This document shows, one piece after another, positions 6,001-46,029 of a stretch of DNA of 64,000 nt. The notes under the pieces were generated by a model, which was not told the origin of the DNA, ran no database searches, and was given only the letters and a program-made list of their open reading frames with translations. Every line of letters starts with the position of its first letter. Position 1 is the stretch's first letter. The stretch is taken from contig CAVQBK010000003.1 of assembly GCA_963710755.1 (NCBI GenBank), forward strand, positions 1,248,001-1,312,000, given 5' to 3'. Source of the stretch: an uncultured bacterium. GTDB lineage: Bacteria > Oederibacteriota > JAAXVQ01 > JAUVAV01. The position numbers and the translations under genes were made by a program.

Positions 6001-9000
6001 ACCAGCCCCAACAACTCTGGAGCGGTGTGCCGGAAGTAGTCATTGAAAAACCGCTGAAAGGGCTTTATCGCTATACCATCACCCCTTATCGTGTGCCTGA
6101 TAAACAACAATTGGGGCCTATAGGCGGGCCGGGGTTGTATGGCGGCCGCGGCCAGGCGGCTGTCATCAAAGTGCAGACCCAAAATATTAAGATCGAGCCG
6201 CCGGAAGGGCCGATCATTATTACCAACACACCCAATGGCAGCCTGGTCACCTTGGATTTCAATGGTGATGTGGTTTCCTTGTCCTATAAAAAAGAAGCCT
6301 TTCCCCAAGTACGCGGCTGGGAATGGGAGTTCTATGACGGTCCCTATTACGAGGGCAAAGAACCGGTTGGTGTTTATAGAACTGAGCATGACACTATTCA
6401 CTTAACCCAGTTGCCTTTCAAACTCGAAGCCAATCATCAATATTATGCGCGGGTTCACGGCTTTACTGGTGTTAGGGGAGAAAAGGGCACGCCCGATTAT
6501 TTTGGCTTTAATGGTTTCCAACTTGATTATAAGCCGCTTACGCATGGTCAAGGGGTTGTCCATAAGCCCCTTCCTTCCGGGCCCATTGAAGCTTTTGCTT
6601 ATGATCACGATACACATATGCTGAGCTGGCAGGGCCTGGCTCCCAACTATACGGTTATCACCTGGCAGGGAGACCCCAACCCTCAAGCTGCTTATTTTAG
6701 GAAAAATGTGCGTACTTATGACGTCACCGGAAGCACAAATAATGAAATAGAATTGATATACCCGTGCGACCACGTGATGATTGTTGGATCCAACACCAGC
6801 GGTCCTTTTGGCGTAACCGGAGAATCTTCAGGAGCCATAGCAGTTGATGCCATGGATATTCCGCCCTATGAGGGCATTGTTCTGACCGCCAAGGATATTG
6901 AAATTAAGGGCAATAAAGTGATGATTAAGGACAGGGTGGTCAAAGCCTTGCCTGAAAATGCGGTGGTCAGGGTGAATTTGTTCAATCCCTTTTTGGAGGG
7001 CAAATCTTTTCATTCAGTGGTACTCGACAATCTCAAGCAAGAACCTTATTTTTATTTGAGCGGTACAGAGGTCATCGATGAGCTGACGGCCACCAAGGGC
7101 AATATTGGCCTCAGCTTTACCGTGGGGTTGAGAGATGATTTGAATGATTCGACCCTCTACTCCAGCGAAGCCTTATCCCTGAAGATTACTATCAATCAAC
7201 AAGACTTGCAGCGCCTGATGATGGACCCTATGATTAAGATCAATGCAGACCAAATCACCTTTGACGGAAAAACAATCTTTTTTCCCAGCGTCCATGGCAT
7301 GGACATCAGCCGGGTGGTGGTTAAAAATGCTCTCGGAGTACCGGTCAAGGACACACTGGTAACGCCGGGGAACAATGTGGGGGCGCTGCCCATCGCGGGT
7401 ATCGATTTAGCCGGGTCCAAATTTTTTACGGTGGAAGTCTATGCCGGGTGGCATGCAACCAAAAAATTTACGGTGTTCAACCGCAACCCCGCGGTCCGGC
7501 GCTTTGATCTGACCCACCAGGCTTTGGGGGCCATCAGCCAGCAAAAGGAACAACAGTTATTGCAGGCCACCAACCGGTTAATTCGCGACGGCAAAATCAC
7601 GGTTGGTCCCTTGGTAGGCCATGGGCAGCAAGGTCAAGCCGTTACGCTCAGGAATGCGCCTTATGATATTAATTTTAGGGATGCCTTTAAGCATGCGTCC
7701 GCGTATAAAGTAGCGGTGTATGACAATGATGGAAAATTGGTTGATACCTTTAACCTTGAAAAACCGCTTGATCCCAGAATAGCCATTCTTTCCCTCAGAG
7801 GCCAGAAAGTGGCGCGAGCTGCGGCTCGGGGACCGCTTTACTTAAAACTCTGCCCTGGTTATATCTACCAAGGTGCTACTGTATACACCTCCAAGGGCGT
7901 GCTTTGGCCCAAACGGGTCAGCATCGACCCAGCCCTGATTCCTCATCTGACCAGTCGGGAAATTAACCAAGCCCTGAAAGAGCTCAAAGTCCGAGTGCAA
8001 GGAAACCAGGTATTTTTCGATCTTCGATCCGGGGAATTAAATACCAAGGGTTATAGGGTTGAATTGTGGTACGGCAACGAACGAAAGATTAAAGACGAGA
8101 GAATATCTTACAATCAAGCTTTTTTCTTTCTCATGGGAAGTGACATTAAACAAGCCGTTCAGGAGGGGAAGCTGGTTTTTAGGGTTTATGCAGCCAAAAA
8201 GGAAAGCGGCATTTTTGTTGCCGCTGATGATCAGACGGCTCATCGTACCATCAAGGCGGTGGAACTTGGCCTCACCCCTGACAAGGCCAAGGACATTCCT
8301 GAAATGACGGCTGTCTTGGCAGATCAATTGTTAACCAAAATTGAGGTCAATAAGATAAAGTTGACCCAGGATAACCGTCAGATCGTCATTCCCACCACTC
8401 TGGATAATGGTTTTGTAAAGGTGATTATTTACGACAAGACCGGCCGCCAGATCACAGATAAAATCATTCACGTGGCTAAAGGCGAAGACATCAAACTTTC
8501 ACAGGAACTTTTTCAGTATGAGAACAATCCTTTTTCATCTGCTTTCGGACCTTTGACCATTACCCTTCAAGCTGGATTAAATGAGGATTTCCTCAGGCCT
8601 GAATTAAGAAAAGCCTTGGATGACAACCCCAATTTAATAAAGTGGAATTGGAACGCTTATTTTACCACCCAGACTGTGCGTATCCGTGTCAACTTATCGC
8701 AGGATGGGAAAATCAAATCCGTTAAAAAATTACCACGGTCCCAACCCGCTGTTCCTGAGACTGAAAATACCGGTTATATGCTCAGCTGGCAGCCGCCCTC
8801 ATGGAAAACGCTCCAGCAAATGGGCGCACGAACACCGGAAGACTTTGACGGCTACCGGTTGATCCTTAAAACCGACCAAGGTGAGACCATTAAAAGAGAC
8901 ATCGACAAAGATTATCCTTATTTTTCCTTAATCAATGTTTTGCCGGAAGGCATCAAGTATTCCTATGAAGTACAGGTCAAAATACGCGGGAAAGCCCAGG

Positions 9001-12000
9001 GCGATTTCACGGCCTGGAGCAGCTTCTCGCCTTTGGTGGCCAAGGGGCCGGCACCGGTCGATCCCAATTTGCAGGGGACCCAACCAACCGGCTGGGTGAT
9101 CAATGCGGTGGAGACCACGCCTTCTGAGCAACAACAAGAAAGACGTAAGATTGTGGATGTGGTCATTACAGCGGGCGGTATGGTGGTGTTGGTGCCCAAA
9201 GATTCTGATGCCAGTGATTTTCATTTCCCCGGATATACCGAAGCGGTTTTTAAACTGGGGGAAGAGGTTTATCCCATCGGCCGGACGCAAAAACTTTCCA
9301 AACCTTCGGCTGCCAAGCAAGGGCTTCATGGACAGGAAGTTTTTGCCTCTGATGATGGCCGATTGCGGTATTTGGTAAACCATGTCGCGCTGCCTGAAAA
9401 GAATGTGGTGGTTAATCATTATGCCTGGGAGAATCCAGACCAACAGGGCCCCATTGAAATGAATATTGGTGCCCGTCCGGCTAACAGCGCCGGCAAGGCA
9501 CAGGCAGGAAAAGTAACGGTGGGTGATAAAACCTATGTGGTGATTTTGTTCGGTAATGGTCAATTCATGGCTGTAGACGAAGCCACGGTGGTGCAAAGGG
9601 GCTGGTACGTGGGCAATGAAATGCAGGCCGCCCTAAACGATGATAAAAAAGCCAACCGAAACGAGCACTACACCGGCCATGGTGAAGGCTCGGTCTTTTT
9701 TATTTCCTTACCTAAAGGAGAAGATTTTTCCGTTTACTCCGGCCTGGCCAAAACCATGGATCAGGCAGGGCAATTAGTGGAAAAAGCCACCGCCTATTAT
9801 CAGAATTTTCAAGACCTGCAACAAAGCTTTAGAACACACGGTCCGACGTTGGGAAATCTCCAAACCATGGCCCAGCGAACCGTGCCGGCCTTTATTAATC
9901 CTCAAAATTATCATGTGGGCGAACTGCCGCTGTCATGGACAGGCGGCGATCTACCCAATATCAACCATGCCGACAACATGTGGACCGGTAATGCTTCGGA
10001 AATGCAAATGATGTTATGGCAGCTTTATCAATTATACGGGAATATCCGACTTGGCGATTACACGGTGGAAGAATTGCTGGCCAACAATGCCAAGGTGATT
10101 ACTCAAATGCAAACCCCCACGGGATTGTTCTACTTGCGCTTGAGCCGGGGCATGAGGCTTTATAAAAATGACGAAGGCGGCCAGGTGGCGGACAACAGCT
10201 TAAGTTTGATTATCATGAATGATCAGGATGTCTTGCGAATGCTACAGGGTTACGAGCCTTTGCCTGTAGCCAGCATTGGGGGAATTGAGTTGGCTGTTGA
10301 CGGCCGGAAAGTTCATCCCAATGATGCTTCCCAATACGGCTTCAATTACAAGGAACCCGATTCCTTTAAACCCGATCAACCGGTTATGACTATCCAGCGC
10401 TTTTTTGATTTACGCAGTGGCAGCGGCCAGCATCGTGTTACTGAAAAGGCGACCCTTATCAATGGTATCCGGGGCGTGAAACAAGCCATTGAAGTCACCA
10501 ATACCTCGGAAAAACCAATTCGGCTGACCAAGATGAAAACGGGTTATGTGGATCTGGCAGCTGATCAGTCAGTAACCTTTAATCCACAAAAACTGGCCGG
10601 CATTCCCCAAAGTCCCAATATGATGATCATTCCCGGCTATGATAAGCCGATCTATGCCCAAGATCTGCTCAATGAAGGCAGGGCTAAGCAGCTTCAGGGC
10701 GATGACCTGGTTAAGTATGTCAATGACCGGATCAATGACCTGATTAAACAAGCAGGCGCCAAGAACCTTGTTTTTGCAGGATGGGATGAATTTATTACCA
10801 TGCGTTTTGGGGAACTAAAACCCAATCAACGCCTTGAAGTGGGGGTGGGGATAAGCCCCTTGCGTGCCAATCAACGGGTCAATGAGTTTCTCACGGCCCG
10901 GGTGGTGACCGATATTCCTGAAGACCAGCAAGAACTACAACCGGGTCAAACTTGGGAGGGTGACCCTGTTACTTATGCTCACTTTTTTAATCCTGTTTCC
11001 GTGGTGGACGCAAAAGGCATGCCCGTGGAAATCTATCTTGTTCATGAATGGGAAAAGCGCATGGAAATTTTGGAAGATCCCCATGCCACGGAAGCGCAAA
11101 AAAAAGAAGTCCTTGATGCCATTGCCTTTGATACCAACTATGGTTTTGCAGCTGATGCCTTGGCCATGGGCGCTACCAGCGACTTTTACAAAAACATGGC
11201 TGAAAATGCAAAAGACCCCCAAAAGAAAAAGGAATACTTGGACCAGGCCCGTTTCTATGGCGACCGGGTCATGTTGGCGGCCATGGCGGCCAAGCAGGCT
11301 TATTGGACGGCGTTGTTCAACAAAAACACGGTCTTGTCAGCCGGGATCATGCGTTTTTACGGTTATCATTTCTGGCTCTTCCAATGGATGGACCAGTATG
11401 CCAACAGCGAGCTGGGCCAAGGCGCGGTGGGCCGTATCCTGGAGGATAAGTTTGTCAATCCCCATGCCAAGGAATGGTTCAAGCAATTAAAGCAGGAAGG
11501 GCAATGGCCCAAACAAATTAAAGACCATCTGGAGTTGAAACTGGATGAACTGGCCCGGTATGTTCATAACCACGGTGAAGTCGGCCGTGAAAAGGTTTAT
11601 GACGTCATTAAAAACAGAACCTATGAAGATTCCTGGAAAGGGTGGGCCTATTTTATTTCGGATATGATCGTGGCTTTAGAGGAAACCCGAGAAAACGCGG
11701 TTGAAGGCGGGGCCCGCCAAAATGAAGGTCCATCGGAAGTTCAACTTGATGATCAAGGGGTTAAAGTGGCCGTGGTGGCTCAGGCTTATGCCATGGCTAA
11801 AAATGATTCCAACCCCGCCAACTTTGATACCAATCGCAAGCGCATGGCTGAATATAAGGCCTTTGCCGAGCGGGCTATTAGCAAATGGTTCCATATCGTT
11901 GAAAAAGGCGATGTTGGCCAGTTGTGGGGCTTTAGAAATTTGGTAGCTCCCCAACATTTTGATAATCAGTTGACCACCTATGGTCAAGTTAATGCTATGC

Positions 12001-15000
12001 GAGGTCTGGTAATGACTTCTATTATTTTTGGTGACGAAATGCCCCGAGCCAAAAAGTTGCTTGATCTGGCGTTTGAAAACTTGTTTGAACGTCACAAGGG
12101 CGCCACGGAAACCACCATTTTCAGGACTTTAGGGTTGACCATTTTTGACAATTTGCAGTTGCCCACCAATGGCCATGATACGAACAGTGAAAATTTGCCC
12201 ATTGGCATGCAAATGATGCTGATTCATGCCGCTCATCAGGCAGGCATGGATCTTGATCCCAACAATCCGCTGCAATTTAACCGTGAAACCGGCAAACCCT
12301 TTTTGGCTGGATTGCCGCAAGTGGATAATTATCCCGACAGTTTCTGGGTGGCCCTGGGCGGGTTGGCCTTTATTCTGATGGGTTTTGGCGGGGGTGCGGT
12401 TGCCTGGAATTATCTTAACAGACGCAAAGCCGATAAGCGCATTGAAGAGGACCAGCCTATCGCCAAGGTGGACGGCAAATCGCTCACGGACTTGACCTAT
12501 GACGACTTCAAAGCTTTTTTACCAGCCGAAGTGCTGGACACTTGGTTAAATCCCCAGGCTGTGCCTACTAATCAACTCAATGACCCGCGATCGCTGCCGC
12601 AGTTTTTGAACTGGAAGCGGAGCAATCAAATCTTTGACCCGCGCCAAGCACTGCTGCTGCTGGCCGAGCGCCTGGAAAGTGAACAAAAAGGCAAGGAAAA
12701 TCTCAGACTGAAAACATTGTTGGGAAACCTTGGAGGCATTAAAATGCCCGCTCATATGCGCGGATTGCAATGGGATAAAAATATGCTGGTATCCAGCGGC
12801 AAGGCTTCGCGAGCTACGGTGGCTGCGGTTTACAGAGCTGCAGGGGCAGTGCTTGCCAATTATTTAGGCGATCAGGCAGATGACCAGTCGGTTCGTCGAC
12901 TTTTAGCTGAGATTGACGCCTTGTTACAAAAAACGCAAATACATAAAGAACAAACTAAGGCGGCTGGAGCTGTCACTCAGGCAAATGGGCTTGAAAAACA
13001 ACCACCCACTATGTTAAATCAGGGCCAACAATTGGAAAAAACTTTTGACATTACCAGCCCTGTTATTCAAAGCATTCAAGCCCGGCTCGACCAAGTTCAA
13101 ACCCAGCCGTTGACCCAACGGGGTTGGTTCCACTGGCTCATGGGGCAGCAGCAGAAAGCCATCAAAAAGTGGCTGGCCACTATGCTCAGCTCGCCGCCTT
13201 TTAATTTCCGCCCCTTCTTAATGGTTCCTTTCCTGCCCTGGCGTTTGGAACAGTCCTATACCATGCCCGGTCAGCATTACATGATCATTATGAAAACCCT
13301 GGAACGGCGTATTAAATACCTGACCAAAATTTATGATTACCTGGCCGGCGTCTATAAAGTTAACCGCCAAATTAAGGCGTTGCATAAACAACACGACCGT
13401 TTGGAAGATATCTTTTATCAAGCCGGCCGCCAACCGGACGTTAATCAAACTCGGTTGATGCAATTGAACCAGGAATTAACCCTGAAGAAAAAAGAGATTG
13501 AGATTGCTGAAGCCCTGCGTGATGAAATTCAGAAAACCATCCAGGACCAGGTAAGTACGCCTCTGGTCAGGTTTATGGAGACTCTTCCCGAGGACACCAA
13601 GTGGGCCACTCGTATTGAGGGAAATCTTTCCCGGACCATTAAGGACTATGAAAAAGATCAAGTATTGATAGATCGGAAAATAGCCCAGGCTCAACCTGAA
13701 ACTTTGACGCAAACCATTTTGGGCTGGTTAAAACTGACCGAAGTTTTTAAAAGAGCCCAAAAAGAAGCCAATGCCAAAAACGCAACCAGCTTCAAGGCCC
13801 GCTTCCTGAATAGCCTTTTAGCAGCCCCTTACGCTAACAAGGAAGCCGTGGCGTTGCTGGAACGGGCAGAACTTACGGCCACAGCTTTGTTGCCCTATCT
13901 GGTTCGACAGTTATTGGAAGTGGAAAAAAGCTACCAAGACCGGCTCAAAACCTTGCAAGACCAAATCAGCGAACTTAGTGAAAAGAATAAAGATGTCCGC
14001 GAGCTTGATACGATGAGCATGCAGGTTCGCTTGCTCGAAACCTACTTGCTGCCAAAAATTCATCAGCAGCTTGAAAAAAACTATGCTGATTATCAAAAGG
14101 AAAAAGATACGCTGACAGAAAAGTTGGCAACCGCCTCAACAGCGGAAGAAAGAACCGCGCTGCAATCTGAACTGGATGCACTGAAGATCATTCTGGACGC
14201 TTTTCCGAGACTGGGCGCTTTCCATTTAGCCATGGATCAGGATTTGGCCGCTCACTTGGCTGAGCTTGATAAGCAATTGAAAAATACACAGAGAAATTTC
14301 ACCACTTTCGATATTGATGAACAAACCCTTTATCAATTGAATGAACACTATACCTTGCTCAATACTTTGGGGGCCAAAATCAAAGACATCAAGGGCCGCC
14401 GTGATCAGTTGGTTGCCGCGGCTGAGACATTAAACATGCCTGTTTCCAACTTCACCTTGGGGCACCGTCTGGGCTCGAACGTTATTGGTAAAGCCCGTGA
14501 GAAGATGGAATTTTTATTCCAGCAGATTGAAAATTACGACGGTGTCCTGAAGGATATTGATGATGCCCGGGCTGCGACCAAAAAGCGTTTGTCTCAAATT
14601 AAAGCTTTTACCCAGTCCCGTTTATACTACTTGACCATGATGACTGATGGCGTCTTGTCTGATGCCTATGATATTACCAATTTCTGGAGAGACAACCAAC
14701 TGCAAACGGATAATGCGGTTGCCAGGGATTATTTTGAAAATGCCATTCTTAGATCTTTGGATCCCGATGAAATGATCAAAGCCTTGAATATTAACATTAA
14801 AAAGGGATTGAAAGAAAGTGATGGTGAGTTTAAGAAACGCGTTGCCGCAACCATCGCCAAGACTGCGGAAGAGATGGACCATCAACAACGGATCGAAGTG
14901 GTGAAATCCTACCTTAATCGTTTGAACGACAGCCAGATCCGGGATTTAATCAGAAACATTCTTTATGATAACAATCTTTATGAAGATAACACCATAGGCA

Positions 15001-18000
15001 GCGGTTCCCTTACCAAATTAAAAGATGTGGATCGTTTTCACAAAAACACCAATATTTTCCTCAAATATTTCCCTGACCCTGACTACAGTGCTGTTCCGGA
15101 TCAAGGTTTACGTCAGGCGGTCAACTACCTGGCAGACAATATGCGTATTGACCTCAAAGATCTGCTGCCTGATTATTTCTTGCCATCCTTGCGTTCTTTT
15201 TCATATGTGTGGGGTGTGCGTTTGATCCAATTTGGTATGACCGTGGGCATTATGGCTTCCTTCTCTTTGGTCTTTGCTGATCCTGATACCTATTACCGTC
15301 TTGTAGAAACCATGACCAATATTCCGGGTTTGATTGATTATATTAACCATTTACTAACTTGGCTTCTTGAGAGTGTTGGCTTGGGAGGGAGTTTTCTCTT
15401 TGCCGGCCTGGTGACCCCAGGGAAAATTGAAAAACAAAACATCAGAGGATCTATGTGGCGATATAGTGCCTTTGGGGCCTTCCTGGTCTTAATGGCCTTT
15501 TATCTGAATGCCGCCACCGGTGTATCCATGGGCGGGGTGGTCTTTTTTCTGGTTCACGTCCTCGTGGGCGGCACGTTGCTTTTCCATACCTTGTGGGCAC
15601 CTTCCCACAAATTATATACATTTATATTACAGTTGTTCGGTGTGCGGCCAGAAGCACCAGCCCAATACAGTTTGGATGAATTAAGAAATGAAGTGGACGC
15701 TTATTACCAAAAACATGGTCAGCCTCTAAATCTTATCTTTTTAAAACCAAAATTCGGGAGTGATCCCAGTGACTATCAAGAATATATAAACTTTCTGAAG
15801 CGTGATGTGGCGTTCATGGCCGACAGCCTGCGCTATTTACCCCATCTCCATGTGACCCTGTCCTCTCCCAGCTTGGCACCGGGCCATGGTTTGGAAGCTT
15901 TTCAGAAAGCGGCTTTGGCCAGTTTCCAAAACTACATTAAATCTACTTATCCTGACATTGCCGATCAATTGCATATTGCCTACTTCCCCGTGAACCGCGT
16001 TTGGTCTTCCAAACCGGGTCAGTTGGAAAGGTTTGAAGTCTTTTTATCCGACTTGTACACCACCTACGGCACGCGTCTGAAAAAAGGGTTGTACGGTAAT
16101 TCGGGATTAACTATTGGGGGCAAACAGTTTGCCCAGGTGGGCGGCGACAATCTTTTGCTCCTAGTCGGCGGCCCCGGTAAAGTTAAAAATGTGACTCAAC
16201 AAGACAAAATCATTGAAACCAACCAAGACCTGCTGGATGCCATCCATAACGGCGATCGTCTGGAGCCAGTGGATAAAGAGGCGTGGGAACAATGGGTTTA
16301 TGATCCCATGCGGGTCGTGGCCAATAGCGATGACAAGAATTCCTGGGGCCTGACCGGAGAAATGGGGCTGCAGGGTTCGACCATGCTTTCCTATTTGCGG
16401 GTGATGTTCAAAAACCCCAATATCTATATGGCCCTGCCTACGATTTATGTCACCAAACCGACCATGAAGAGCAAGACTTATTCCAGCCCGTGGCTCTATA
16501 TTGCCGATCTGGCCCGTACCTATAACACCATCTCCGAAGTAGTCATGATGTGGATATATAAAGGTGCGTATGGGCATTATGGCAAAAGCATGCTCCAGCC
16601 CGGTCAGCATGCCCGTACCATCTATAAATCAGAACATTTGCATCCGGATAAACAAACCTCCCATGATTATCAGGAAGCTATTGCCATGATGAAGGCTAGG
16701 GTTATTATCGGATCGGTGCTCTCCAAACTTCGGGTCACTATTTTGAATGCCAAATCCTATTTGTTCTCCCACCGTCTGGGAGACCGCAAACATGTCTATA
16801 AATTGCAGCGTGAGGGCATGACCCTGAGAATTTGGGAACATAACCCCGGTAGTCCAACCCAGACTGTTCAATCGGACGGCCAAATCCTGGCTAAGTCGGC
16901 TGATGGTTTTGTGCCTACCATGGCCTTTAAAGATGTCCTGGCCAAAGTGATCCTGACGGCTGCGGCTGAACGGAAACTATTGAATGAAGATCCTGATGTG
17001 GTGCAAGGCCAAGAATGGTCGATCCAATCCATCGCCCCTCTGGGCAATGAAGATCATTATGAAATCGTGGTGCGTATGGGTGAGGGGGAAGAGGCTAAAG
17101 AGGCCAAATTTCAATTTTTATTTGACGCAAACGGTGGAGTAAGTTTGACCAGCAATAATATGATGTCAAAACCGGCCTGGTTTTCACCGCAAGATATGCG
17201 TAAGTACATGGATATCATTATCCGCCATGCAGTGATGTCCAATATCGAAGACAAAGGCTCGGTTGGTGAACGTGACCTGCGCATGCCTATTTCCTTCTTC
17301 TTGCGTGATGGTCGCTGGGTGGTGGGGGACTGGCAAATGCTGCTCACCGAAGGCCCCTATGATAAATATTTAAGTCCCCGCGAACTTTTTCATTATGTGT
17401 TGCTGAAGCGGCGGCTTTATTTGGATGCCGTGTTTTTGATCTTTAGTATGTATTTTCTGACCATTGCCTTGACAGGCTATATGACTCTCAGTAATTTTGG
17501 ACTGGCCACTACTATTCTGATCATCACCAATGTGGCTATTATCGGCGTGGACAAATTATTCCTGCCTTTTGGCGAAAGTTTAAAGGATTACAGGAAAATA
17601 ATTTGGGATGAGCCCACCTTGCGGGGGCGGTTCATACAATTCCTGAAGCAGGGCGGATTTCTGGTCAAGTTGACATTCAATACGCTCAATTTTGGGGTTC
17701 GTGTTACTTTGTATACCACCTTGGTCTCACTTATGAATTTGTGGATCATGGGCTTTGTGGTGGCTAAAGTCATTAAAGCCGGCAGAGAGGGAGCTAAGAT
17801 CGAATGGAAAGGTCTGGACAATGCTACCCTGGCTCAAATGGAATTCAAAATGCTATTCCCGGCTTTCTTGAACCGCTTTTTCGAAGGTAAGCTGGTGAAA
17901 TCCCATTACAATACATTTACCCGGCCCTGGAGAGTCGGATTGGCCGCAGTGGCCATTCTGGCCGGCGCCGGCTATGTTGGTCTGATTTTGACAGGCACTT

Positions 18001-21000
18001 TATATACCGGCATTGGCATCATGATTCTAAGTTGGTTGGTGGCACCGCTGGTTATGTATATTGCCTCTCAGGGCAAAGAAGGTAAATGGCGCGAGAAACT
18101 CTATTTCCCATTCTTATTGGGGTACATGGCGCTTTTCATAGGCGTGCTTGGTCCTTACTACCAATGGGAACCTCTTCTGCGCGTGGTACTCAGTCTGTAT
18201 TCTTTGTTCGTGACTTTCTTTATCTTTGAATTCACGCCCATGCTGCCCAAACGAATTAAGACGGCCGGACAAAATTTAAAACAAAGTTCGAAAGGACAAA
18301 TTTGGCTGGCTATGGCAATGACCGCATTGATTGCTGGAGGTGTGGTTTATCAGGAAGATCTGAAACAATGGACCAGTACCATTCCGGCCAGGACTCAGCG
18401 AGTCATTGATGAAGCTAAATATATCCTGCACAGCCAAGTTCCATGGCTTCCGATTGACTTTGCAAAAGGTACTTCCATCACACCAACTACTGCCGAAGGC
18501 GGACAGGCACCTCAGGGAAAAGAGGAGAAGAAGCAGAGCACGGCTGCGCCGGTTCAGGGCAACCGGCTGCTCCAGCCCAAAAATAAAGAAGAAAAACCTG
18601 CCGTTAACCCCTCCGCTACTATTCCAAATACTGATGAAGGCGGGAAGGCACCGCAGGGAAAAGAGAAGAAGCCGAGCACGGTGGCTGCGCCGGCCCAGAG
18701 CAACCTGCAGCCTCAGTCCAAGACCAGAAAAGAACAACCAGCTGTTGATCTCTCTGCTACTATTCTAAATGGGAGTATGGCATTTACTAATAATAAACTT
18801 CAAGTACAGCAAGTTGATATTGAACATTGGCGTAAGGATCAGGCAATCCCAGATAAAGAAGCATTTTTTAAGAATTATTTAAAACTTTTACACATGTATG
18901 GTCAGTCTTCAGTGACAGGGAAAAATGCCGGTGATTTGGCCTTTTGGGCTGCAAAAACTAGTCGTGGTGAGATGACTTTTGAACAAATAGAATATAATGA
19001 ACTGCCTCCGGCCAAGGCGGCGGTAGAAGTTGATGAAACCTCTGTCCCGGCGGCCACGCATAGTAGTAAGCCATTATTCTCAGCCGGCATGGATGCTGCA
19101 GCTAAAAAAGCATATGTTAAAAAGTTGCTGCAAGCCTATTTGCATGAACGGGTAAAATTCCGTGATCCCAACAAGGATTACCCCCTTGATTATCCGGCCA
19201 AAACTGATGAAACCAATGCCACTAATATTGGCTTTGATCTGGTTCAAACCGTGGTGGCGCAACAGATTAATGGTGAAATTAAGCAGAAAGAAGCCTTAAC
19301 CCATTTGCGCAAAGTGTTGCGTCATTTACTAAAGGAACCGCAGACCAGCGGTTTCTTCCCGAATCATCTTAGTCTCAAAGGGCAAACACCAGTGCCCGAT
19401 AATCCGCAAGCTTTGTCGGACAGCAATAAAATTATTCCGGGCTTAATTATGGTATGGCATGCTTACAAGGGAACAGAAGTGGGAAAAATGGCCTATCAGC
19501 TATTGAACCGGATTGATTGGTCCAAGTTATATGATGCGTCCCACAACGCCCTGAGATTTATGTTTGATGTAAAGACCGGCCAGTGGAGCGGAGGGCCACG
19601 GGTATGGCTGGGCAGTGATTTGCGGCTGCCTTACATCATCGGCACGGCTATTGGCCAGTTGCCAATGAAATCACTTGACCTCATTAGCGGTCGTCCTGAC
19701 ACCAAACCCGGCGAAATAAGAGAAACCAAACAGTTCGGTTTGTTTATGCCCATGATGGACGGTTTGTTCCTGTCGGTAGCTGAAAAAGGCACCATTGTGG
19801 AAAAATGGGCAGCAGATCAAGCGTGGGCACAATTTGAACACGCAGCAGAGAGAGGGGCACCTTTAACCTTTAATTCGAGTTCTATTAATCCCAATAACTA
19901 TAGCTACAATGCCAATTTCACCGGTGCTGGGATCAATATTGTCTCCCCCCATGCTGTGGCCTTGGCCAGCCGGTTTTATCCTAATGTTGCCACTGAGGAA
20001 TTTGAACGGATGGATGCCATGGGTATGCGTGGTCAATTTGGCTTTAGTGATGCTATTGATGTTACGACCGGTAAAATGGCAGGAGAAGATCGTGCGGTTG
20101 GCGGTCCCAATAACGCCATGACCTATTTAAGTCTCACCAACCTGTTTGCAGGCGGGCAAGTGGTTAGCCAGTACTTTACTAATGCCCTTTCCGATTATAT
20201 GCAAGATCAAGGTCCCAAGGCAAAATATCCTGTTGCACAAGATGCCCGATCTTTTTACAGGCAGGTGCCGTTCTATCGGAACAAAACAGACCAGTTTGCA
20301 CTTTACCGCCAGCGTGATCAGCAAGGATTAAACAAGATACCACCTGTACCCCAACGTTTATTAAAGGGCAACCGGCTGCTCTGGAACGCCAATGTGGTGC
20401 CTGCGGCCATTGCCGCGGTACTTGGCCTGGCCGGCTTGTTCTTTACCGGCTACCTTGATTCCACGGTAATGGGCAGTACTATCGGCGCAGGTGCCATTGC
20501 TTTCTTGAGTGCCATTGGATTGCATGAAGCCAGTCACCGTCTCTGGACGCCCGGCGGCCGTCTGGTATGGGACCGTCAGGGGCTGCAGGTCATGCCGCCT
20601 CGAGGTGCCGCGGTGACCCGCGCCCAAGCCTTGGCCGGGCCAATAGGATCTCTGATCATCGGAGCAAGCTTTGCCTTGGCCTTGGCCCTCTTGACGCCTT
20701 TTTCCTCGGCAGCCTTGGCGGTGGGGCTAACGTTTGTGGCGGTTAATATGTGGTCCTTAATCCCCGGCATTCCGGGGGACGCCCAGATGATTTGGGGTAA
20801 AAATGCGTCGGATAAACAGTTGGAAACTAAAGAAGATGGTTCAAAAATCATTGATAAATTATTGGGCAAGGGTAAGATTTATCTCTGGACAACATTTGCT
20901 TTGGCAATAGTGCTTTATATCATTATTTATCCTCAACTTGTAGATTGGTCGAAAACACAAGTGATTATGGGTTTGACCAATGTGATTGTTATTTTTACTA

Positions 21001-24000
21001 TGAATTTTTTCCTCATTAATAAAACCATCGCTCGTTTGCTGCACCTGACCAGAGGGTCCAGAACGTTAAAAGCAATGGATTATTCTTCTGGTATCCCGGA
21101 AGATCAAAAAACCGCTGCTTATTACCCCATTCTATTTAAAAACCCATCCGATTTAAAATTTTTTAACAATACCCTTAAACTTTCAATTCAAAACAATCGG
21201 GATCCCAATATTCAGTGGGTAATTTTAAGCACCTCACCTAAAAATATACAGGCAGAGGAAGAGAAGGCAATTGCGGCATTAAAAAAAGAACTGGGTATAA
21301 ATAACCTCTCATATATCCATCGCAGTTCCAAGGTGAACAATTGGGAGACCAAACGTGGCGGCTATATGCATTTTATGAATTGGCTGCATCAAGGTGCTCC
21401 TGAAAATGGCGTGATTCAAAAAGTCCAGCGATTTCCCGCCATGCCTGCTGGGGAAGTATTTGACCAAATTATTAGCGATCTTAATGGATTAAAAACTGTA
21501 ACCAACATGGTGATGGGTGATTCAGATAGTTATTGGCCAACAGATAGCATTAAAAACCTTGTGGCCAGAATTGTCGAGCCAGAAAACCAAGATTATGTTA
21601 TTTTCCAAGGTAGGGTATTGGGGCGTAACCAGGATGAAAGCTTTTTAGCCAGATTATATAATGAAATCCAAATTATCATCCAAGGTCAGAATGAATTCTG
21701 GACGCAATTCGAAGAGATTTTTTGGGGCGGCCATGGTGCGGGGTGGGAGATCAATAAATTTTTAGATAGCATGGCTGGCAACATGAACAATGGCTTTACA
21801 AGTCATGATTATGTGGAATCACTTTTTGCTCGCACCGCTTGGATTCCTGATGTTGTCAGCTATGAGGATATTACGCCCAATCTGGAATTACTGTTAAAAC
21901 AAGTTAAACGGTACTGGCAAGGTGATAAGCTTACCGGTGTTTTCTATAAAACCTTAATCCCGCAAGAAACAGGAGAGCTGAAACGGAGTCCATTGACAGT
22001 CATACAAAGAGTCACCCTTGCATCATCCGTTCACTCGATGTGGGTTTTACCGCTATTGCTGCTTGTTTATATCATGACCAGTGCCCAGATGGTCTTTTTA
22101 GGTATATCCATTTGGTATCTCAATCTCCATATCGCTCTGTTTTTCCTCCTTTTTACTGTGGCAAGCAAAGACATATCTATGATTTTAAAAGGCATTAGAG
22201 TTCTACCTGTATTATTACTAGTTGTTCCGATTGTGATGTTTTTGATGCCCTATGCAGCTACAGTTGATTTGCTTAAACAAGCCGTGAGTAAAATCTTCAA
22301 AATAAAATTTGGTGATTTCAATTGGGTTCCGCAGGGGAGCCTAAATAGATCCCAAGACTATCAAAAAATCCTTCCATTCGTCGTGACCGCTACATTGCTG
22401 GGTTTGACAGGCATATGGTTTTTACCATTGGGCATCAGTGTTTTTCTTTTTGGCCCTTTGCTTCTGGCACCGTTGACAAGCTGGTGGTTGGCGCAATCAC
22501 CTGAAATTATTTCCTTTGAAAATATTATTAATTATTTTGATCGTAAACAAGTTATGCAGAGGATACCAAAGATTGCGGCAATGGCGCTATTGGTATTGGC
22601 ACTGGTTACTGTAATTAGTTTGGCTACATCCTCATCTGCCCAAGGACAGGCAAGCTTTGATGGCAACAGCAGTAGGGGCACACCTACACTTGTTAAACCT
22701 GATTCGGATTTAGCAAGGCAAATAGTAACACAAAGTTCTTCATTATCAAGGGGTAAGCTGAAAGTTGAAGCTGGAGATGTTAATTATTGGCTGGATGATC
22801 GTACCATCACAGACAAAGCAGCATTTTTCAATGCTTATTTAAATTTGTTGAAAATGTATGGGCAGTCTTCGGTGACAGGGAAAAAAGCAGGTGATCTGGC
22901 CTATTGGGCCACGCGCATAAGTAACAGGCAAACTACTCTAGCTGAGGCTCAAAAGGATTTTCCGGCAGGAGCAATCGCCTCTAATGCTGTTCAAGCCGAT
23001 GTGAATGCGTTGGCGCAAAGAGTTGTAATGGAAAGTCAGTCGTTGACCAAGGGTAAGCTGAAAGTTGAAGCTGGAGATGTTAATTATTGGCTGGTTGATC
23101 GTACCATCACAGACAAAGCAGCATTTTTCAATGCTTATTTAAATTTGTTGAAAATGTATGGGCAGTCTTCGGTGACAGGGAAAAAAGCAGGTGATCTGGC
23201 CTATTGGGCCACGCGCATAAGTAACAGGCAAACTACTCTAGCTGAGGCTCAAAAGGATTTTCCGGCAGGAGCAATCGCCTCTAATGCTGTTCAAGCCGAT
23301 GTGAATGCGTTGGCGCAAAGAGTTGTAATGGAAAGTCAGTCGTTGACCAAGGGTAAGCTGAAAGTTGAAGCTGGAGATGTTAATTATTGGCTGGTTGATC
23401 GTACCATCACAGACAAAGCAGCATTTTTCAATGCTTATTTAAATTTGTTGAAAATGTATGGGCAGTCTTCGGTGACAGGGAAAAAAGCAGGTGACTTGGC
23501 TTTTTGGGCTGCAAGGATTAGCAAAGGCCAGGCGGGATGGGAAGAAATCAGCAGAGATTTTCTGCCGCAAGACAATGCAGCCGCCACTAAAGCTCAGCCT
23601 GCGTCTGCGGACACTTTTCATTTCCAGAGACTATTCTCCGCCGGAATGACGGCTTCAGATAAAAAATCATATTATATCACCTTGCTTGAAGCCTATTGGG
23701 AAGAACGCGTCACCCACCGTGACCAGGAAAAGGATTACCCCCTTGATTATCCGGACAAAACCGAAGAAACCAATGCCACCAATATTGGTTTTGACCTGGT
23801 TCAAACCGTGGTGGCTGATCGAATCAATGGGGATATTAAAGAAAAAGAAGCTTTAGCCCATTTGCGCAAAGTATTGAGCAATTTGTTAAAGGAGCCCCAA
23901 ACCAGCGGTTTCTTCCCGAATCATCTTAGTCTCAAAGGGAAAACACCAGTGCCCGATAATCCGCAAGCTTTGTCGGACAGCAATAAAATTATACCGGGAC

Positions 24001-27000
24001 TGATTATGGTCTGGCATGCTTACCCGAAAACAGAGGTCGGGAAGATGGCCCGCCAATTGTTGAGCAGGATTGACTGGTCAAAATTATATGATCAACCTAA
24101 TCATGCGTTGAGATTTATGTTTGATATGAAAACCGGGCAATGGAGCGGCGGCCCGGGGGTGTGGCTGGGAAGTGATGTACGGCTGCCTTACATTATAGGG
24201 GCAGCCATTGGTCAATTGCCAATGGAAGCGCTTGATCTCATTGGCGGCCGTCCTGATACCAAGCCCGATGAGCCAAGGGAGACCCAGCAGTTCGGATTGT
24301 TTATGCCCATGATGGATGGCTTGTTTCTGGCCAATGCAGAAAAAGGCACCATGGTGGAACAATGGGCGGCTGATCAAGCCTGGTCACAATTTGAACATGG
24401 GGTAGAAAGAGGGTATGCTTTAACCTTTAATTCAAGTTCTATTAATCCCAATGACTATAGCTATAATGCCAACTTCACCGGTCCTGGCGCCAGTATTATT
24501 TCACCCCATGCGATTGCCTTGGCCAGCCGTTTTTATCCTGAAATTGCTACTGAGCAATTCAAACGGATGGATGCCATGGGCATGCGCCACTATGGCTATA
24601 GGGATGCGATTGATGTGGTCACAGGCAACATGGCTCGAGAAGACCGCGCGGTTGGCGGACCCAATAATGGCATGACCTATTTAAGTCTCACCAACCTGAA
24701 AGCAGGCAAGCAGGTGGTGGCTGATTACTTTGATCAAGCCCTGACCCACTTGATGAATGATCAGCGCGGCAAGGCAAAATACCCGGTTGCAGCGGATGCT
24801 CGAGCGTTTTACCATGAAGTACCAGTCTATCAAAATCCACAAAATCGCGCTGGAGTTTATAGGCAACGCGACCAGCAAGGCATGACACAAATACCACCCA
24901 TTCCCCAGCGCTTATTAAAAGGCAACCGGCTGTTATGGGAAAGCAATGTCATACCCGCGGCTGTTGCCACTATTCTTGGCCTGGCCGGGTTATTCTTTGC
25001 GGGCTATCTTGATTCCACGGTGATGGGCAGCACCATAGGCGCTGCGGTCATGGCGTTTTTGAGCGCCATGGGATTACATGAAGCCAGTCACCGTCTTTGG
25101 ACACCCGGCGGCCGTCTGGTATGGGACCGTCAGGGGCTGCTGGTCATGCCGCCTCGAGGTGCCGCAGTAACCCGCGCCCAAGCCTTGGCCGGGCCAATAG
25201 GATCTCTGATCATCGGAGCAAGCGTTGCCTTGGCCTTGGCCCTCTTGACGCCTTTTTCCTCGGCAGCCTTGGCGGTGGGGCTAACGTTTGTGGCGGTTAA
25301 TATGTGGTCCTTAATCCCCGGTGTACAGGGTGATGCTCAAATCATCTGGGGCCAAAGCAAGCAACCGGCCCTCTTGAAGCTGGAAGCACCAGTGGCTGCG
25401 GCCGAAAAAACAAGCGGCGTCATGCAAGAAATCAGCAGAATGAGGACCTGGTTCAATCAACCGCTTAGAACCAATCCTACCATGACCGGCATGCTGCGCG
25501 GGTTGATTGCCCTTGGGCTTCCGGCTGTGCTTTATCCTCTGGCGTCAGCCATACAAATGACAGCCGGCTATCTGCAAACCGATCCCGTGGGCCTGGCCGT
25601 GGTTTTGACGGCCATTACTGGTTTGGTTTTGGCAGGTTTAAAGGGCTTGTTGACTGCGGTTCTGCGTCGTGGCCCTGGCCGCCAACTTGATGCCGACCAA
25701 GTAGGGCAGTTGAAGCAATTGGCGGGCTTTGCGCCTGAGTATCGAGGGTTGACATTTATCACCAAAAGCCAAAAAGCACAGGCAACCGGTAATGACGTTA
25801 TTATTCCTGATATAGTGGCAGGTATCTTAATTGATACCATTGCGGCCCAAGGGCCGCAAACCGTGATCAACCGGCTCAAAGCCCGTTTGGCCTACTATAT
25901 CTTCAAGAGTGTGGTCAATGACGCCATGCTGCAATGGACCAAGCGCACGAGCTTGGAAAAACAAAATTTGTCTTGGATCGACCGTTTGGCCATGCCTTTT
26001 GAAACCTTGGCCTTGCGTGCGGGCAACCCGCTGTTTACAGGCATGATGGCCGCAGCCGCCATGGCGGCCACGATTATGATTGCCGGCTTGCTGGGGCTGC
26101 CCGTGTTGGGCATCACGATCATCGTGGGCTTGGCCGCGGCGACGATGGCCTGGGCTTTTGCCACCATCACCACCAGCTCCTTTGACTATAGCGATCCAAA
26201 ATCAGGTGCCGGAACCTTGACAGAAGCAGGGCTGGCGATGTTGAGAGCTAATGAACAAAAATATTCCAATAATAAGCAAAGGGTAGCCCTTGACCCTGTA
26301 GACCTCCTGGGCGCGGTGGTGCAGGCCAATGAAGCCGTGGCAACACAATTAGGGCAGAAAGCAGAACCCAATCTGGGCGAGACTTTGGTCCAACGGTTGA
26401 ATGAGATGGTCAGGACCGGATTTGGCCGCAATTTGTTGTCCTTGATCAATGAGTTGCGGATGGGCAAGGCTGAGAGCCTGAGGCAACGGTTACTGCAGAC
26501 CTTGGCAAAAGAGTGGCAAGGACAGTCGGGTATGACGGCTGCAGCCTATGAAAACGCCGCCCTGGCGCTGGTGCAAACAAAGTCTTCCCAGGCTATGGTG
26601 GCCAAATCAGAGGCAACGCCGCCGGTTAATCAAGTGGTTTATTTATTCAATTCACCGCAACTGATCGCAGCCTTGCTGGAAAATACGCGGCAGCTTTTGA
26701 CTCAAGCTCACCAGCAGGAAGTGAGGGGAAGTACCGTCGAAAGCTTGACGGCTGTTGCAGAAAGTTTGACGGCCCTGAAGGCCATGTCCGAACAGCACCA
26801 GCCTGGGGAACTGATGACGCTCAGTGATGATCCGGCCATGGTCCAGGCACTAATGCCTTATATTCGCGGCTATGCACAACAGGCTGATACCGGCAGCATG
26901 CTTAATTTGGGTGAGGATTTTGAAGAAAAAACCAGCGTGGTGCTGGGCGAGCATCAGACCTATACCCTGCAACTGGCCAGCGGACAGGACGTGGCTATGC

Positions 27001-31114: not shown

Positions 31115-31177
31115 CCATTCGGTTTTTTGACCACTTCCATTGAATTTTCTGTCAATCCTTTTAAAAGGAGCTATCCC

Positions 31178-32443: not shown

Positions 32444-32485
32444 TTCGGATGGTTCTGCCATTCACGAGCGAGGGATAATAGTGTA

Positions 32486-33385: not shown

Positions 33386-33386
33386 C

Positions 33387-34367: not shown

Positions 34368-35669
34368 ATGACCTTGTTTAAGAGAAATAGGCTAAGGTTG
34401 TTTTTAATCCTGGTGGCCGGCTCTTTGAGTGTCATGACTACAGCCCGTGCGAATCAGTCTCTAGACCACAAAACCTACCTGCGCGGCCTTTATCACGATA
34501 CCTATGCCTGCCTCGATTATTTTACGGCCCCTGCCACGAACTTTCCTTATGATGTGAGCACCAAGAAAGCGGAGACCTCTATCAGCAATATCGGCCTGTA
34601 TATGGCGGCCACGGCCGTGGCCGGCAAAACCGGGCTCCTTAGTGACCAGCAAGCCCTATCCAGATTGAATAAAACCTTTGCCGCCCTCCGGCGTATCCCT
34701 ACCTGGGAGGGCTTTCCAGTAACGTGGGTCAACGTGGAAAATGCGCAACTGGCTTATGGACCAAAATTTTCTTATGCCGATCACATTGGGAACCTTATCT
34801 GCGGCTTGTTGGTGGTAGCCGGATTGTATCCGGAAGACTTTGCCCGAAAAGTGAATGCTTTCATTACGCCCATGAATTTTAAGGCCACCTTTGATCCTCG
34901 CGTGAATATGATCAAGGGTGGTTATGATTTTGAGAAAAAAACCTTTGATGTCAAGCAATCTTGGGGAAATTGGTACTATAACCTTTTAGCCAGCGATACC
35001 CGTCAGTTTGGTTTGTTGGGTATGGCCAGGGGACAGATTCCGGAAGTCTATTGGCGGACCTTAACCAGGCACAATAATTTTAATGATCCCCTGGACAAGG
35101 AAATGCTTACCTTGCTTGGCCCGGGACGGGAACCTTATTATTGGCCGGGCATGGAAGGCGGCGGACTGTTTATGCAATATCTGCCGGGGATTTTTCTTAT
35201 GGAGAAAAACACGGCCATGGGCATCTCCGCAAAAACCATGGCCTATGCTCAGATTAAACTAGCCCGGGCGCAGCATACGTATCCTTTTTGGGGCATCTCA
35301 GCTTCAGAAACTCCCGACGGCCGGGGTTACCTCGGCTGGGGGACATTGAAAAAATCGGTCGTAACGCCCCATGCCAGTATGCTGGCGGTGGCTGATTTTC
35401 CTGAAGACACCGTAAAGTGTTTGCGGGCTTTGGAAAAAAAGAATATGCGGCCGGTTGTTTCCATTGATGGCCGGGATTATCACTTCGGGTTCACCGATGC
35501 TTATGATACCACCGCTCAGACGTCATCGGAACACTATTTGGCGTTGGATCAGAGCATGGCATTTTTGAGTTTGGCCAATTATTTATATGATGAGATTGTG
35601 CGTAAGGCCTTTCAGACCCCCCCCTTGGGACATAAAGCCCAGACCTTGCTGGAAAAGCTGGAACCATAA
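34368..35669 (+). CDS. Secreted beta-1,2-glucanase-clan (glucoamylase-like/DUF3131) protein
   Basis: Signal peptide; TSISNIGLY, LLASDTR, GGGLFMQ, WGISASE, VVTPHAS, FGFTDA, LALDQSM. Confidence 0.8.
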   Translation: MTLFKRNRLRLFLILVAGSLSVMTTARANQSLDHKTYLRGLYHDTYACLDYFTAPATNFPYDVSTKKAETSISNIGLYMAATAVAGKTGLLSDQQALSRLNKTFAALRRIPTWEGFPVTWVNVENAQLAYGPKFSYADHIGNLICGLLVVAGLYPEDFARKVNAFITPMNFKATFDPRVNMIKGGYDFEKKTFDVKQSWGNWYYNLLASDTRQFGLLGMARGQIPEVYWRTLTRHNNFNDPLDKEMLTLLGPGREPYYWPGMEGGGLFMQYLPGIFLMEKNTAMGISAKTMAYAQIKLARAQHTYPFWGISASETPDGRGYLGWGTLKKSVVTPHASMLAVADFPEDTVKCLRALEKKNMRPVVSIDGRDYHFGFTDAYDTTAQTSSEHYLALDQSMAFLSLANYLYDEIVRKAFQTPPLGHKAQTLLEKLEP

Positions 35670-35812
35670 GCATAAGATGATCTGAGCTTGGTCCACAGGT
35701 CGGGCAGGAGCCACCGGAACGGGTGAGCACCTTCGTGCCGGCACTGGTAATGAGTCCGGAACTACTATTGGTCATGGCATGGAAACGCTCTTGTGATTTT
35801 AAATGGTTGTGG

Positions 35813-35840
35813 TTGACGTTCCCGAAGGTTGTGGTATGAT
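35813..35840 (+). promoter_or_regulatory. Putative sigma70 promoter
   Basis: TTGACG-16 nt-TATGAT with extended TG, about 200 nt upstream of the CDS at 36039. Confidence 0.5.
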
Positions 35841-36038
35841 AATCTGACTTTTAGATCAGCACTCGGAAAAATCCAGCTGGACTATGACACATGGTGGTAC
35901 ACCAACGGCAGTCCAAGGTTGTTTGGCCTGACCGGATTCGTCCCCAGCCATATCAAACCTGCAAGCATGGCCTGCTACTGGGTCCTCGGAGCCACAGTGG
36001 TATGACCACCAACTTCATCTCACCTTAGGAGAGTTATT

Positions 36039-39118: not shown

Positions 39119-39221
39119 TTCACCGAGTTCGGCGTCATGAAAACACTGCCTTTTTTAAAGTGTAACCACCCAATGTCTAAGGGGCTAACGAACACCGCCT
39201 AACAAAGGCTAGAGGACGTTT

Positions 39222-39830: not shown

Positions 39831-39861
39831 AGAGAAAAAACGCTTTACGGTCATAAGAGTG

Positions 39862-39870
39862 TGGTATAAT
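39862..39870 (+). promoter_or_regulatory. Extended -10 promoter element
   Basis: TGgTATAAT about 170 nt upstream of the CDS at 40037; TTTACG upstream at a sub-optimal spacing. Confidence 0.5.
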
Positions 39871-40036
39871 TTTTTTTGCTTCACCATTAAAGTTGCGAAG
39901 GATTTTAACCGACCCTAAAGGCTTTTTTCGTCATGTGTTCGTCGGGCAGCTGACAGGAAAGGGGGGATGAGAGCGTCGTTGGATTTATGTGCTGCAGTTT
40001 ACAAAGACCATAATAAAAATTGATGAGGTGAAGACC

Positions 40037-40633: not shown

Positions 40634-40646
40634 TTTAAGCCAACGG

Positions 40647-40683
40647 CATATCCAACTGCCCCAGCCTGGGGCAGTTGGATATG
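40647..40683. terminator. Perfect 17 bp inverted repeat (mRNA-stabilising or attenuating hairpin, no U tract)
   Basis: catatccaactgcccca-gcc-tggggcagttggatatg. Confidence 0.7.
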
Positions 40684-40708
40684 ATCCGGCTGGGCAGGGG
40701 GACCTAGA

Positions 40709-42385: not shown

Positions 42386-42486
42386 TCATCGGCGGGCATC
42401 TGCAATAATGATGAAATAAAGGGCTGTTGTCCTTTGTCTAATCACTAGAGCGTGCTCTGACCGGATGCCAAGAAAGGATTAATGCT

Positions 42487-46021: not shown

Positions 46022-46029
46022 TTACACTC

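Follow-up and report, generated by a model that had tools for sequence, protein, structure and literature searches.

Two cyclic glucan synthase-type glycosyltransferase cores and a duplicated barrel domain in a giant predicted membrane protein of an uncultured bacterium

To our knowledge, glycosyltransferase (GT) family GT84 is known almost only from Cgs, the synthase of cyclic beta-1,2-glucan. In that enzyme, synthesis, cyclisation and length control are described as cytoplasmic, as are all soluble domains, and the membrane part is described as having six helices (PMC10901819). In the numbering of the Agrobacterium tumefaciens protein the SHD motif has D739 as its Asp and the RW motif R773 as its Arg (PMC10901819), and the other sites compared here are D624/D626 of the DxD motif, the first UDP-binding Asp D527 and the primer residue Tyr694 in the loop GIDPY. 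For the cyclase domain, which belongs to glycoside hydrolase (GH) family GH189, catalytic roles are reported for E1356, E1442 and a His pair (PMC10834661), and a general-acid Glu is reported as conserved across the whole SGL clan (PMC12102758). Here we describe a gene in a 64,000-nucleotide stretch of the genome of an uncultured Oederibacteriota bacterium (the window; G000:C3:1248001-1312000; genome 3.44 Mb, 98% complete), which encodes a giant protein with two GT cores of the Cgs type and two SGL-type barrels.

The gene is a single open reading frame (ORF) on the forward strand at window positions 3..27668 (9,221 codons within the window), and starts about 238 codons further upstream, near G000:C3 1247289. 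From stop to stop the frame counts 9,474 codons without an internal stop, on a contig of 1.47 Mb, and with the first plausible ATG as its start the protein has about 9,459 residues. Residues are numbered so that the codon of residue n begins at window nucleotide 3n. An earlier note on this DNA had described positions 15200..25352 as one polypeptide made of two tandem Cgs-like modules. The motifs that it quoted are all present in one frame and the region is indeed one chain, but the chain extends beyond it on both sides. A Pfam search of the entire ORF in four chunks gave only PF10091 on the second barrel (27.4 bits, cut-off 27) and a sub-threshold Glyco_trans_2_3 match on the second GT core, and an NCBIfam scan returned nothing relevant.

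Two GT cores of different subfamilies

Residues ~5070-8450 of this ~9,460-residue predicted inner-membrane protein contain two GT cores which by sequence comparison are of the Cgs type and belong to different subfamilies; we call them GT1 and GT2 after their order in the chain. Each is followed by hydrophobic helices and a barrel, as had been proposed. In full, the order of parts after each core is a set of extra helices that ends with a signal-anchor-like one, a low-complexity linker, one or three domains of ~100 residues, a barrel, and a membrane block with an HExxH motif. The parts are as follows, all on the forward strand.

15210..15593 (+), hydrophobic helices ahead of GT1 (residues 5070-5197), from hydropathy and from their position inside the profile match to the pre-GT helices of Cgs
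15600..17387 (+), GT1, GT84-like core of a rare subfamily, from profile match, AlphaFold2 (AF2) model and fold match
16695..17282 (+), beta-rich insert of ~180-195 residues between SHD and RW of GT1, from AF2 strands E375-E528 and motif spacing
17418..18350 (+), membrane region 1 (residues 5806-6116), from VIA alignment to Cgs, hydropathy and charge
18351..18761 (+), low-complexity linker rich in Pro, Lys, Glu and Gln, from sequence
18762..19019 (+; also delimited as 18720-19022), one copy of a 'GD..YW' domain of ~100 residues, preceding barrel 1
19020..20372 (+), barrel 1, SGL-clan (PF10091-related), with Asp at the acid position and without the GH189 nucleophile
20391..20807 (+), HExxH membrane block 1 (helices A-D; HEASH at residue 6841, AGPIGS, N..PG.PGD)
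20877..21026 (+), two helices aligned with transmembrane helices TM1-TM2 of Cgs, from alignment to Cgs and phmmer range
21030..22007 (+), GT2, GT84-like core with WETKRG, DSD, SHD and RYWQGD, from BLAST to the genome's own Cgs, motifs in register, and Foldseek on a low-confidence model
22035..22490 (+), membrane region 2, which aligns with Cgs TM3-TM6 and the intervening interface motif
22566..22628 (+), additional helix, signal-peptide-like (RIPK-hydrophobic-SSSAQG) and without a Cgs counterpart
22680..23582 (+), three tandem copies of the 'GD..YW' domain, preceding barrel 2
23580..24932 (+), barrel 2, 76% identical to barrel 1, with the PF10091 match just above cut-off
24948..25358 (+), HExxH membrane block 2
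25404..27665 (+), C-terminal region, common to P0002 and, at its start, to the G008 giant (both homologues are described below), without a PDB match

The relationship of GT2 to Cgs was detected by direct sequence comparison. The same genome encodes a canonical Cgs of 2,950 residues (GT, PF10091 and GH94; G000:C3:1389381-1398230), located outside the window about 80 kb beyond the giant gene, and GT2 matches this protein in BLAST with 22% identity over 561 aa (E 5e-18). The motifs of GT2 (WETKRG at residue 7114, GDSDS at 7172, SHDYVES at 7267 and KRYWQGD at 7302) align in register as WE(T/R)KRG, D-S-D against D-A-D, SHD, and R-Y against R-W; DxD is kept, and the alignment confirmed the R-Y noticed earlier in place of the R-W of Cgs. 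All of the shorter database matches to residues 5100-8460 (9/9) were Cgs-type proteins with PF10091 and GH94, and they covered GT2 with its helices (~6966-7498 against Cgs ~430-995) as well as the barrels. The three top Foldseek matches of the GT2 model, itself of low confidence, were three Cgs entries. The closest relative of GT2 (34% identity, E 5e-99) is found in a different giant protein from the same order (G014:C8:128001-152562, minus strand), an ORF of at least 8,770 codons in which the GT2-type core comes first and which also carries cytidylate kinase, GT1/GT5-family-type glycosyltransferase, HD, glucosamine-6-P-isomerase-like and metallophosphatase domains. The GIDPY loop with the primer Tyr694, conserved in 16/16 aligned Cgs, is absent from both GT2 and this relative. 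On these alignments we classify GT2 as a Cgs-type (GT84-like) membrane core.

GT1 contains SHDYQEA at residue 5553 and RDGRWVVGDWQ at residue 5768, within a motif set of W..KPG, D-D-K where DxD is expected, GK, SHD and RW..GDWQ. A first profile comparison of GT1 with Cgs was weak (P 7e-4) and was superseded by an hhalign comparison with a combined GT2 and Cgs profile, which yielded a probability of 98.9 and an E-value of 3.6e-17 over 307 columns with the motifs in register. An AF2 model of residues 5200-6120 (pLDDT 77, pTM 0.82) had three Cgs entries as its best three solved matches in Foldseek (E 3.8e-5 to 6.6e-3). Comparison with Cgs in VIA gave Z scores of 15.3-15.8 and an rmsd of 4.1-4.2 Å over 471-481 residues, with positions 1-825 of the model corresponding to Cgs 454-980; hyaluronan and cellulose synthases came next, at Z 12.5-13.1. 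No match to GT1 was found among PDB sequences at E<=5, in the ESM Atlas (best score 0.77) or in a related-locus search of genome contigs, and the GT1 profile alignment contained no equivalent of the primer-tyrosine loop. Based on the profile match and the predicted fold, GT1 is classified as a Cgs-type (GT84-like) membrane core of a rare subfamily, and the proposal that both GT segments are of this type is upheld. A GT-A fold with aligned DxD, SHD and RxxRW had also been expected of both. The GT1 model superposes on Cgs, and SHD and the Arg are kept (both cores have SHD; RW is unchanged in GT1 and reads R-Y-W in GT2), but DxD is found only in GT2.

The distance from SHD to RW is 216 residues in GT1 and 34 in the A. 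tumefaciens Cgs (D739 to R773), which agrees with the insert of about 190 residues reported earlier; the insert is shorter in most GT1 homologues. A full scan of 1.84 billion representatives identified 22 proteins of the GT1 family at E<=1e-3, and 19 of the 20 that were small enough to scan lacked any Pfam family. The family keeps W..K.G, DDKN, MLHP.N, GK, LSHD.QES and RD.RW..GD.

The two GT cores gave no BLAST match to each other at E<=1e-4, while the two barrels are 76% identical, in line with the remark that the GTs are very divergent and the GH domains near copies. The absence of GH94 was likewise borne out: neither PF06165 nor PF17167 was found in any of the four chunks of the ORF, and the GH94 half of the genome's own Cgs, in which these families score 582 and 409 bits, had no match to the giant protein. 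Similarity between the own Cgs and the giant is limited to the GT and cyclase parts of the former. The long coiled coil ahead of GT1 had been taken as the counterpart of the Cgs N-terminal domain; its position agrees, but comparison with the own Cgs gave no detectable similarity.

Duplicated block, barrels and HExxH membrane block

Residues 6254-6934 and 7774-8452 form a repeat with 67-82% identity, each copy of which consists of a ~100-residue domain, a barrel and a membrane block with HEASH. The suggestion that the entire GT-to-GH unit had been duplicated did not hold. The homologue P0002 (7,397 residues) can be aligned with residues 2-6094 and 8468-9221, the whole stretch in between being absent from it; it has GT1 with its helices, at 47% identity over 1,054 residues of the GT1 region, and GT2 has its closest relative in another giant. 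By sequence comparison, what was recently duplicated is confined to the small domain together with the barrel and the HExxH block, and the P0002 pattern makes GT1 part of a conserved giant scaffold. A second homologue, the G008 giant from the same family, is colinear with our protein in the order N-terminal domain, GT1, helices, signal-anchor-like helix, acidic Pro-rich linker, one 'GD..YW' domain, barrel and start of the C-terminal region. The three tandem 'GD..YW' domains are 85% identical to each other and the single copy has diverged (43%); the domain carries paired GD..YW motifs and has no Pfam or PDB match, and it precedes the barrel in the G008 giant as well.

Both barrels contain TNATNIGFDL, at residues 6404 and 7923. 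They match PF10091 proteins at E 1e-16 to 1e-43, although barrel 1 has no Pfam PF10091 match at E<=0.01, and they match the Cgs cyclase region in phmmer at 1e-11 to 1e-5 and the genome's own Cgs at only 1e-4 to 8e-8. Their nearest relative is an 830-residue ORF of a genome from the same genus (G001; E 1e-36 to 1e-43), and other near relatives lie 7-10 kb downstream in the window (ORF 36039-38054, E 3e-29 to 4e-31, and ORF 34368-35669). All three bear N-terminal signal peptides. Among solved structures, ORF 36039-38054 has its best relative in the GH189 domain 8wy1 (E 3.8e-29), with Asp facing E1356. Judged by these similarities, both barrels are homologous to the Cgs cyclase region, and are closer to secreted stand-alone proteins than to the cyclase domain itself.

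In the alignment to Cgs, TNATNIG corresponds to TSPTNIG and the Asp of LSDSN to that of V-D-S-G-N, the candidate general base (AtCgs D1104, CpSGL E142). The GH189 residues were followed in an alignment to 10 Cgs and closer relatives: E1356 is replaced by Asp (GSDLRL), the nucleophile E1442 (Glu of WGISE) by Ser (FNSSS), the His pair by Asn-Asn and E1400 by Met, and the 4-helix insert of Cgs is missing. The Asp residues at the acid and base positions are kept in both barrels and all close relatives. The earlier note had likened the GH domains to the Cgs cyclase. They are homologous to the cyclase region but are not Cgs cyclase domains, being nearer to secreted proteins, lacking the GH189 nucleophile by alignment and having Asp for the acid Glu. 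This Asp-type group looks like an undescribed branch of the SGL clan, since the Glu is reported clan-wide in the account of PMC12102758.

The HExxH membrane block after each barrel had been overlooked. A 2,761-residue protein of the genome G005, which also has the N-terminal domain of the giant, contains a related block with 28% identity; HExxH, AGP and N..GD are the same in this block and in the two copies of the giant (3/3). As in site-2 protease (S2P)/M50 peptidases, HExxH stands at the end of a hydrophobic helix and is followed by AGP and then N...GD, in the same order; the spacing to the last motif is, we presume, longer than in RseP. Neighbours of the block in the ESM Atlas at 0.85-0.88 include M50 clusters, which we regard as a lead only. 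No Pfam M50 match was obtained at E<=5, nor in a genome scan at E<=10; a PDB profile search gave no S2P and chance matches only (for example TrwC, E 0.37), and a profile comparison of the block with 16 M50 proteins aligned just the 17-18 columns around HExxH, the hhalign matches to three M50 alignments being confined to the HExxH stretch or to 17 columns around AGP. The block thus looks M50/S2P-like at the level of motifs only. A true Pfam M50 domain occurs elsewhere in the genome (G000:C3:95687-96130), within an open frame of 1,313 codons.

Topology, proposed function and alternatives

In module 1 the helices that superpose on Cgs extend to about residue 6024, the point at which Cgs would pass into its cytoplasmic cyclase domain; another three helices follow, the last of which (6100-6116) is signal-anchor-like. 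For module 2, alignment with 16 Cgs extends as far as ~7498, and one more helix lies beyond. When the Cgs interface motif is treated as non-spanning, nearly all Lys and Arg residues of both modules fall in inside loops, and when it is treated as a span, ~20 of them in module 1 and ~11 in module 2 fall outside, against 9 and 3 inside. The barrel of the G008 giant is bounded by one helix whose N-flank is positive and by a single other one whose C-flank is positive. No overlooked membrane helix was found inside the barrel regions (best 19-residue hydropathy 1.2). The barrels are probably extracytoplasmic, as had been suggested; this placement is favoured because of the extra helices past the Cgs set, the Lys/Arg bias, the secreted relatives and the topology of the G008 giant, but the helix count given below is a difficulty for it.

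Given that the GT cores and the barrels are homologous to parts of Cgs, that GH94 is lacking and that the parts follow the order set out above, we lean towards a reading in which the protein combines a glucan synthase with a processing machine on the outer face, that is, the logic of OpgH and OpgG realised with Cgs-type parts. OpgH translocates its product. At the cytoplasmic face the GT cores would build a glucan chain, most likely with beta-1,2 linkages, and the chain would be trimmed, transferred or held by the barrels on the outer face of the inner membrane, in contrast to Cgs, where everything is cytoplasmic and GH94 sets the chain length. The barrels cannot work as a GH189 cyclase because the nucleophile Glu is missing; if active, they would more likely be inverting glucanases that use the two conserved Asp residues. 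The context is in favour of this reading, with downstream PF10091 proteins, a sugar ABC importer and glycan-binding proteins with tails of the type IX secretion system (T9SS).

Several observations count against it. The assignments of synthase, donor and product are all predictions from sequence and analogy. AF2 modelled GT2 with low confidence (pLDDT 58.8), and this model was excluded from the helix mapping. In the alignments, the D527 position reads S-S-P-S in GT1, where the first UDP-binding Asp is absent, and S-T-S in GT2 and its G014 relative, against L-T-D in Cgs. GT1 and its family have Lys at the second Asp position of DxD (D-D-K), anchored by the downstream HP.N. The loss of D527 in both cores and the Lys in GT1 suggest that donor or metal use may differ, or that a core may be inactive. 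Both barrels and their three nearest relatives have Asp at the general-acid position (XcSGL E239). Moreover, WG.S(A)S and LDQ, both kept in the nearest relatives, have given way to TFNSSS and PNN in the barrels, which makes a non-catalytic role possible, such as that of binding modules. Finally, six hydrophobic segments separate barrel 1 from GT2, and if all of them span, the two lie on the same side of the membrane; counting every hydrophobic segment as a helix places all domains in the cytoplasm. A model with outside barrels needs one of the six to be non-spanning, most simply the Gly/Ser-rich one just before HExxH.

An arrangement with everything in the cytoplasm, as in Cgs, would make the protein two synthase-cyclase units without length control, the glucan being released into the cytoplasm and exported by a separate transporter. 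The number of hydrophobic segments is even throughout (8 from GT1 to barrel 1, 6 from barrel 1 to GT2 and 6 from GT2 to barrel 2), which favours this arrangement, and the six after barrel 1 resemble what we take to be the N-in/C-in six-helix layout of SpoIVFB-type S2P. It would also agree with Cgs, the soluble domains of which are described as all cytoplasmic (PMC10901819). We nevertheless consider it unlikely: it leaves the excess of positive charges on the outside given above, the spans that it needs align with a Cgs interface motif that does not span, the nearest barrel relatives are secreted, the G008 homologue has a clean outside topology, and the GH189 nucleophile is absent.

The ORF could also be a precursor in which the HExxH blocks, possibly together with signal peptidase, cut at the signal-anchor-like helices to release separate enzymes. 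This is compatible with a synthase coupled to outer-face processing, and we hold it to be improbable to a similar extent as the cytoplasmic arrangement. HExxH, AGP and N..GD are invariant in the three sequences, the Atlas lead points to M50, the helix ahead of barrel 2 terminates in SSSAQG and the corresponding G008 helix in a lipobox-like SIGC, and peptidase domains are proposed to cut other giant proteins in an account of Omnitrophota (10.1101/2023.11.21.568195). The failure to match M50 in Pfam, the 17-18 columns obtained with hhalign and the lack of S2P in the PDB profile search speak against it, and cleavage is predicted from sequence motifs only.

Another alternative is that the barrels, and possibly one GT core, are non-catalytic glucan-binding or scaffold modules, with the real function residing in the ~5,000 unannotated residues. 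The altered barrel motifs and the D-D-K and D527 changes described above would fit, and neither the first 5,000 nor the last 751 residues matched anything in Pfam, NCBIfam or PDB sequences. Against this, both cores and the GT1 family as a whole retain SHD, R-W or R-Y and the leading Asp of DxD, and the acid and base Asp are kept in the barrels and all close relatives; the conserved Asp pair and GT motifs suggest a family trait and not decay. We judge this alternative to be quite unlikely. More doubtful again is a conjecture that joins several of these elements, namely a self-contained envelope-glucan factory made as one precursor, in which two Cgs-derived synthases, perhaps metal-free or with a donor other than UDP-glucose, would push chains through the membrane to outer-face barrels of a new GH family (Asp acid, no nucleophile), and HExxH intramembrane blocks would cut at internal signal-anchor helices.

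That assembly or gene calling fused several genes into one ORF is hardly credible: it has in its favour the length alone and the small shares (0.05-0.16) of the region's words in 4 public sequencing runs of one study (with no RNA run among the holders), against which stand the frame open for 9,474 codons on a 1.47-Mb contig, the colinear giants P0002 (7,397 residues) and G008, and repeat copies that have diverged to 67-82% identity and are not collapsed repeats.

Genomic setting and comparison with known systems

The genes downstream of the giant gene include the following.

27825-31061, next gene after the giant gene, with a PF10091 domain (166 bits), two malectin stretches and a T9SS sorting tail
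31127-34259, solute-binding protein and two permeases of a sugar ABC importer
34368-35669 and 36039-38054 (34368..38054, +), two genes for the signal-peptide-bearing barrel relatives, with the same Asp at the acid position

Further downstream are T9SS proteins with carbohydrate-binding modules (CBM), another PF10091 gene and a GH35/42-like gene. Window positions 38516-52164 hold a run of genes on the same strand, of which several match nothing in Pfam and others carry CBM11/CIA30-like domains and tails of the T9SS type (CHU_C, FlgD_ig). Canonical Cgs was found in 38/99 genomes of the phylum at E<=1e-10, the GT1 type in 3 of 41 relatives and the HExxH block in 5/99 genomes, two of them with weak matches (E above 1e-3); each count includes the genome studied here.

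The 504-residue N-terminal domain of the giant, for which no PDB or Pfam match was found, follows a single helix (window 3-1586 and the ~238 codons upstream) and is common to the 2,761-residue G005 protein (E 4e-53) and the G008 giant (E 6e-115). Only 3 cysteines occur among the 9,221 residues of the giant, each of them ahead of residue 2,620, and the G008 relative has 30 in 6,616. Residues 893-1248 of the G008 giant (G008:C91) form a sugar-1-phosphate nucleotidyltransferase domain with a ManC-type beta-helix, which hints that these proteins may make their own donor.

The locus presents two distant GT84-like subfamilies without GH94 and without the primer-tyrosine loop, beside barrels that probably face the periplasm. 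If the proposed function is correct, Cgs-type cores can be rewired into a design of synthesis combined with processing outside. The Asp-type barrels and their secreted relatives at the locus would then be candidate members of a branch not yet described within the beta-1,2-glucanase clan, and about one third of an otherwise dark protein of 9,460 residues would gain a readable function, as would its relatives.

Among giant proteins, the 'archaeovorins' of Omnitrophota (10.1101/2023.11.21.568195) are similar in being very long, with many membrane helices, GT, GH and peptidase domains of divergent sequence and long stretches that lack annotation. They differ in that Cgs-type cores with SGL-type barrels or HExxH blocks do not feature in the portions of that account available to us. 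Among the titles listed in a search of the literature on giant proteins and glycosyltransferases and on GT84, none describes this arrangement.

The barrels are homologous to the GH189 domain (TiCGS-Cy, PDB 8WY1; PMC10834661) and to the families GH144, GH162 and GH192-194 that PMC12102758 describes for the SGL clan, and keep the acidic residue at the CpSGL E142/AtCgs D1104 position. They differ from GH189 by Asp for E1356, Ser for E1442, Asn-Asn for the His pair and Met for E1400.

With Cgs the giant shares a GT84-type membrane core with flanking helices, followed by an SGL-clan domain with T(S/N)(P/A)TNIG, and both GT models have their best match among solved structures in Cgs. The giant protein is not a Cgs, however, because five defining features of that enzyme are not found in it. 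Compared with Cgs, it has two GT cores of different subfamilies in one chain; it lacks both GH94 and the GIDPY loop with Tyr694; GT1 has D-D-K for DxD and the insert of ~180 residues; neither the 4-helix insert nor the two catalytic Glu residues occur in its barrels; and its extra helices probably put the barrels outside, all within a protein of ~9,460 residues.

The comparison with OpgH and OpgG/OpgD is one of logic. The parts of the giant are fused and come from Cgs-type families, and no homology to OpgG or OpgD is claimed, but the proposed division of labour would be the same, with a membrane GT that makes beta-1,2-glucan and glucanase-type proteins that process it in the periplasm.

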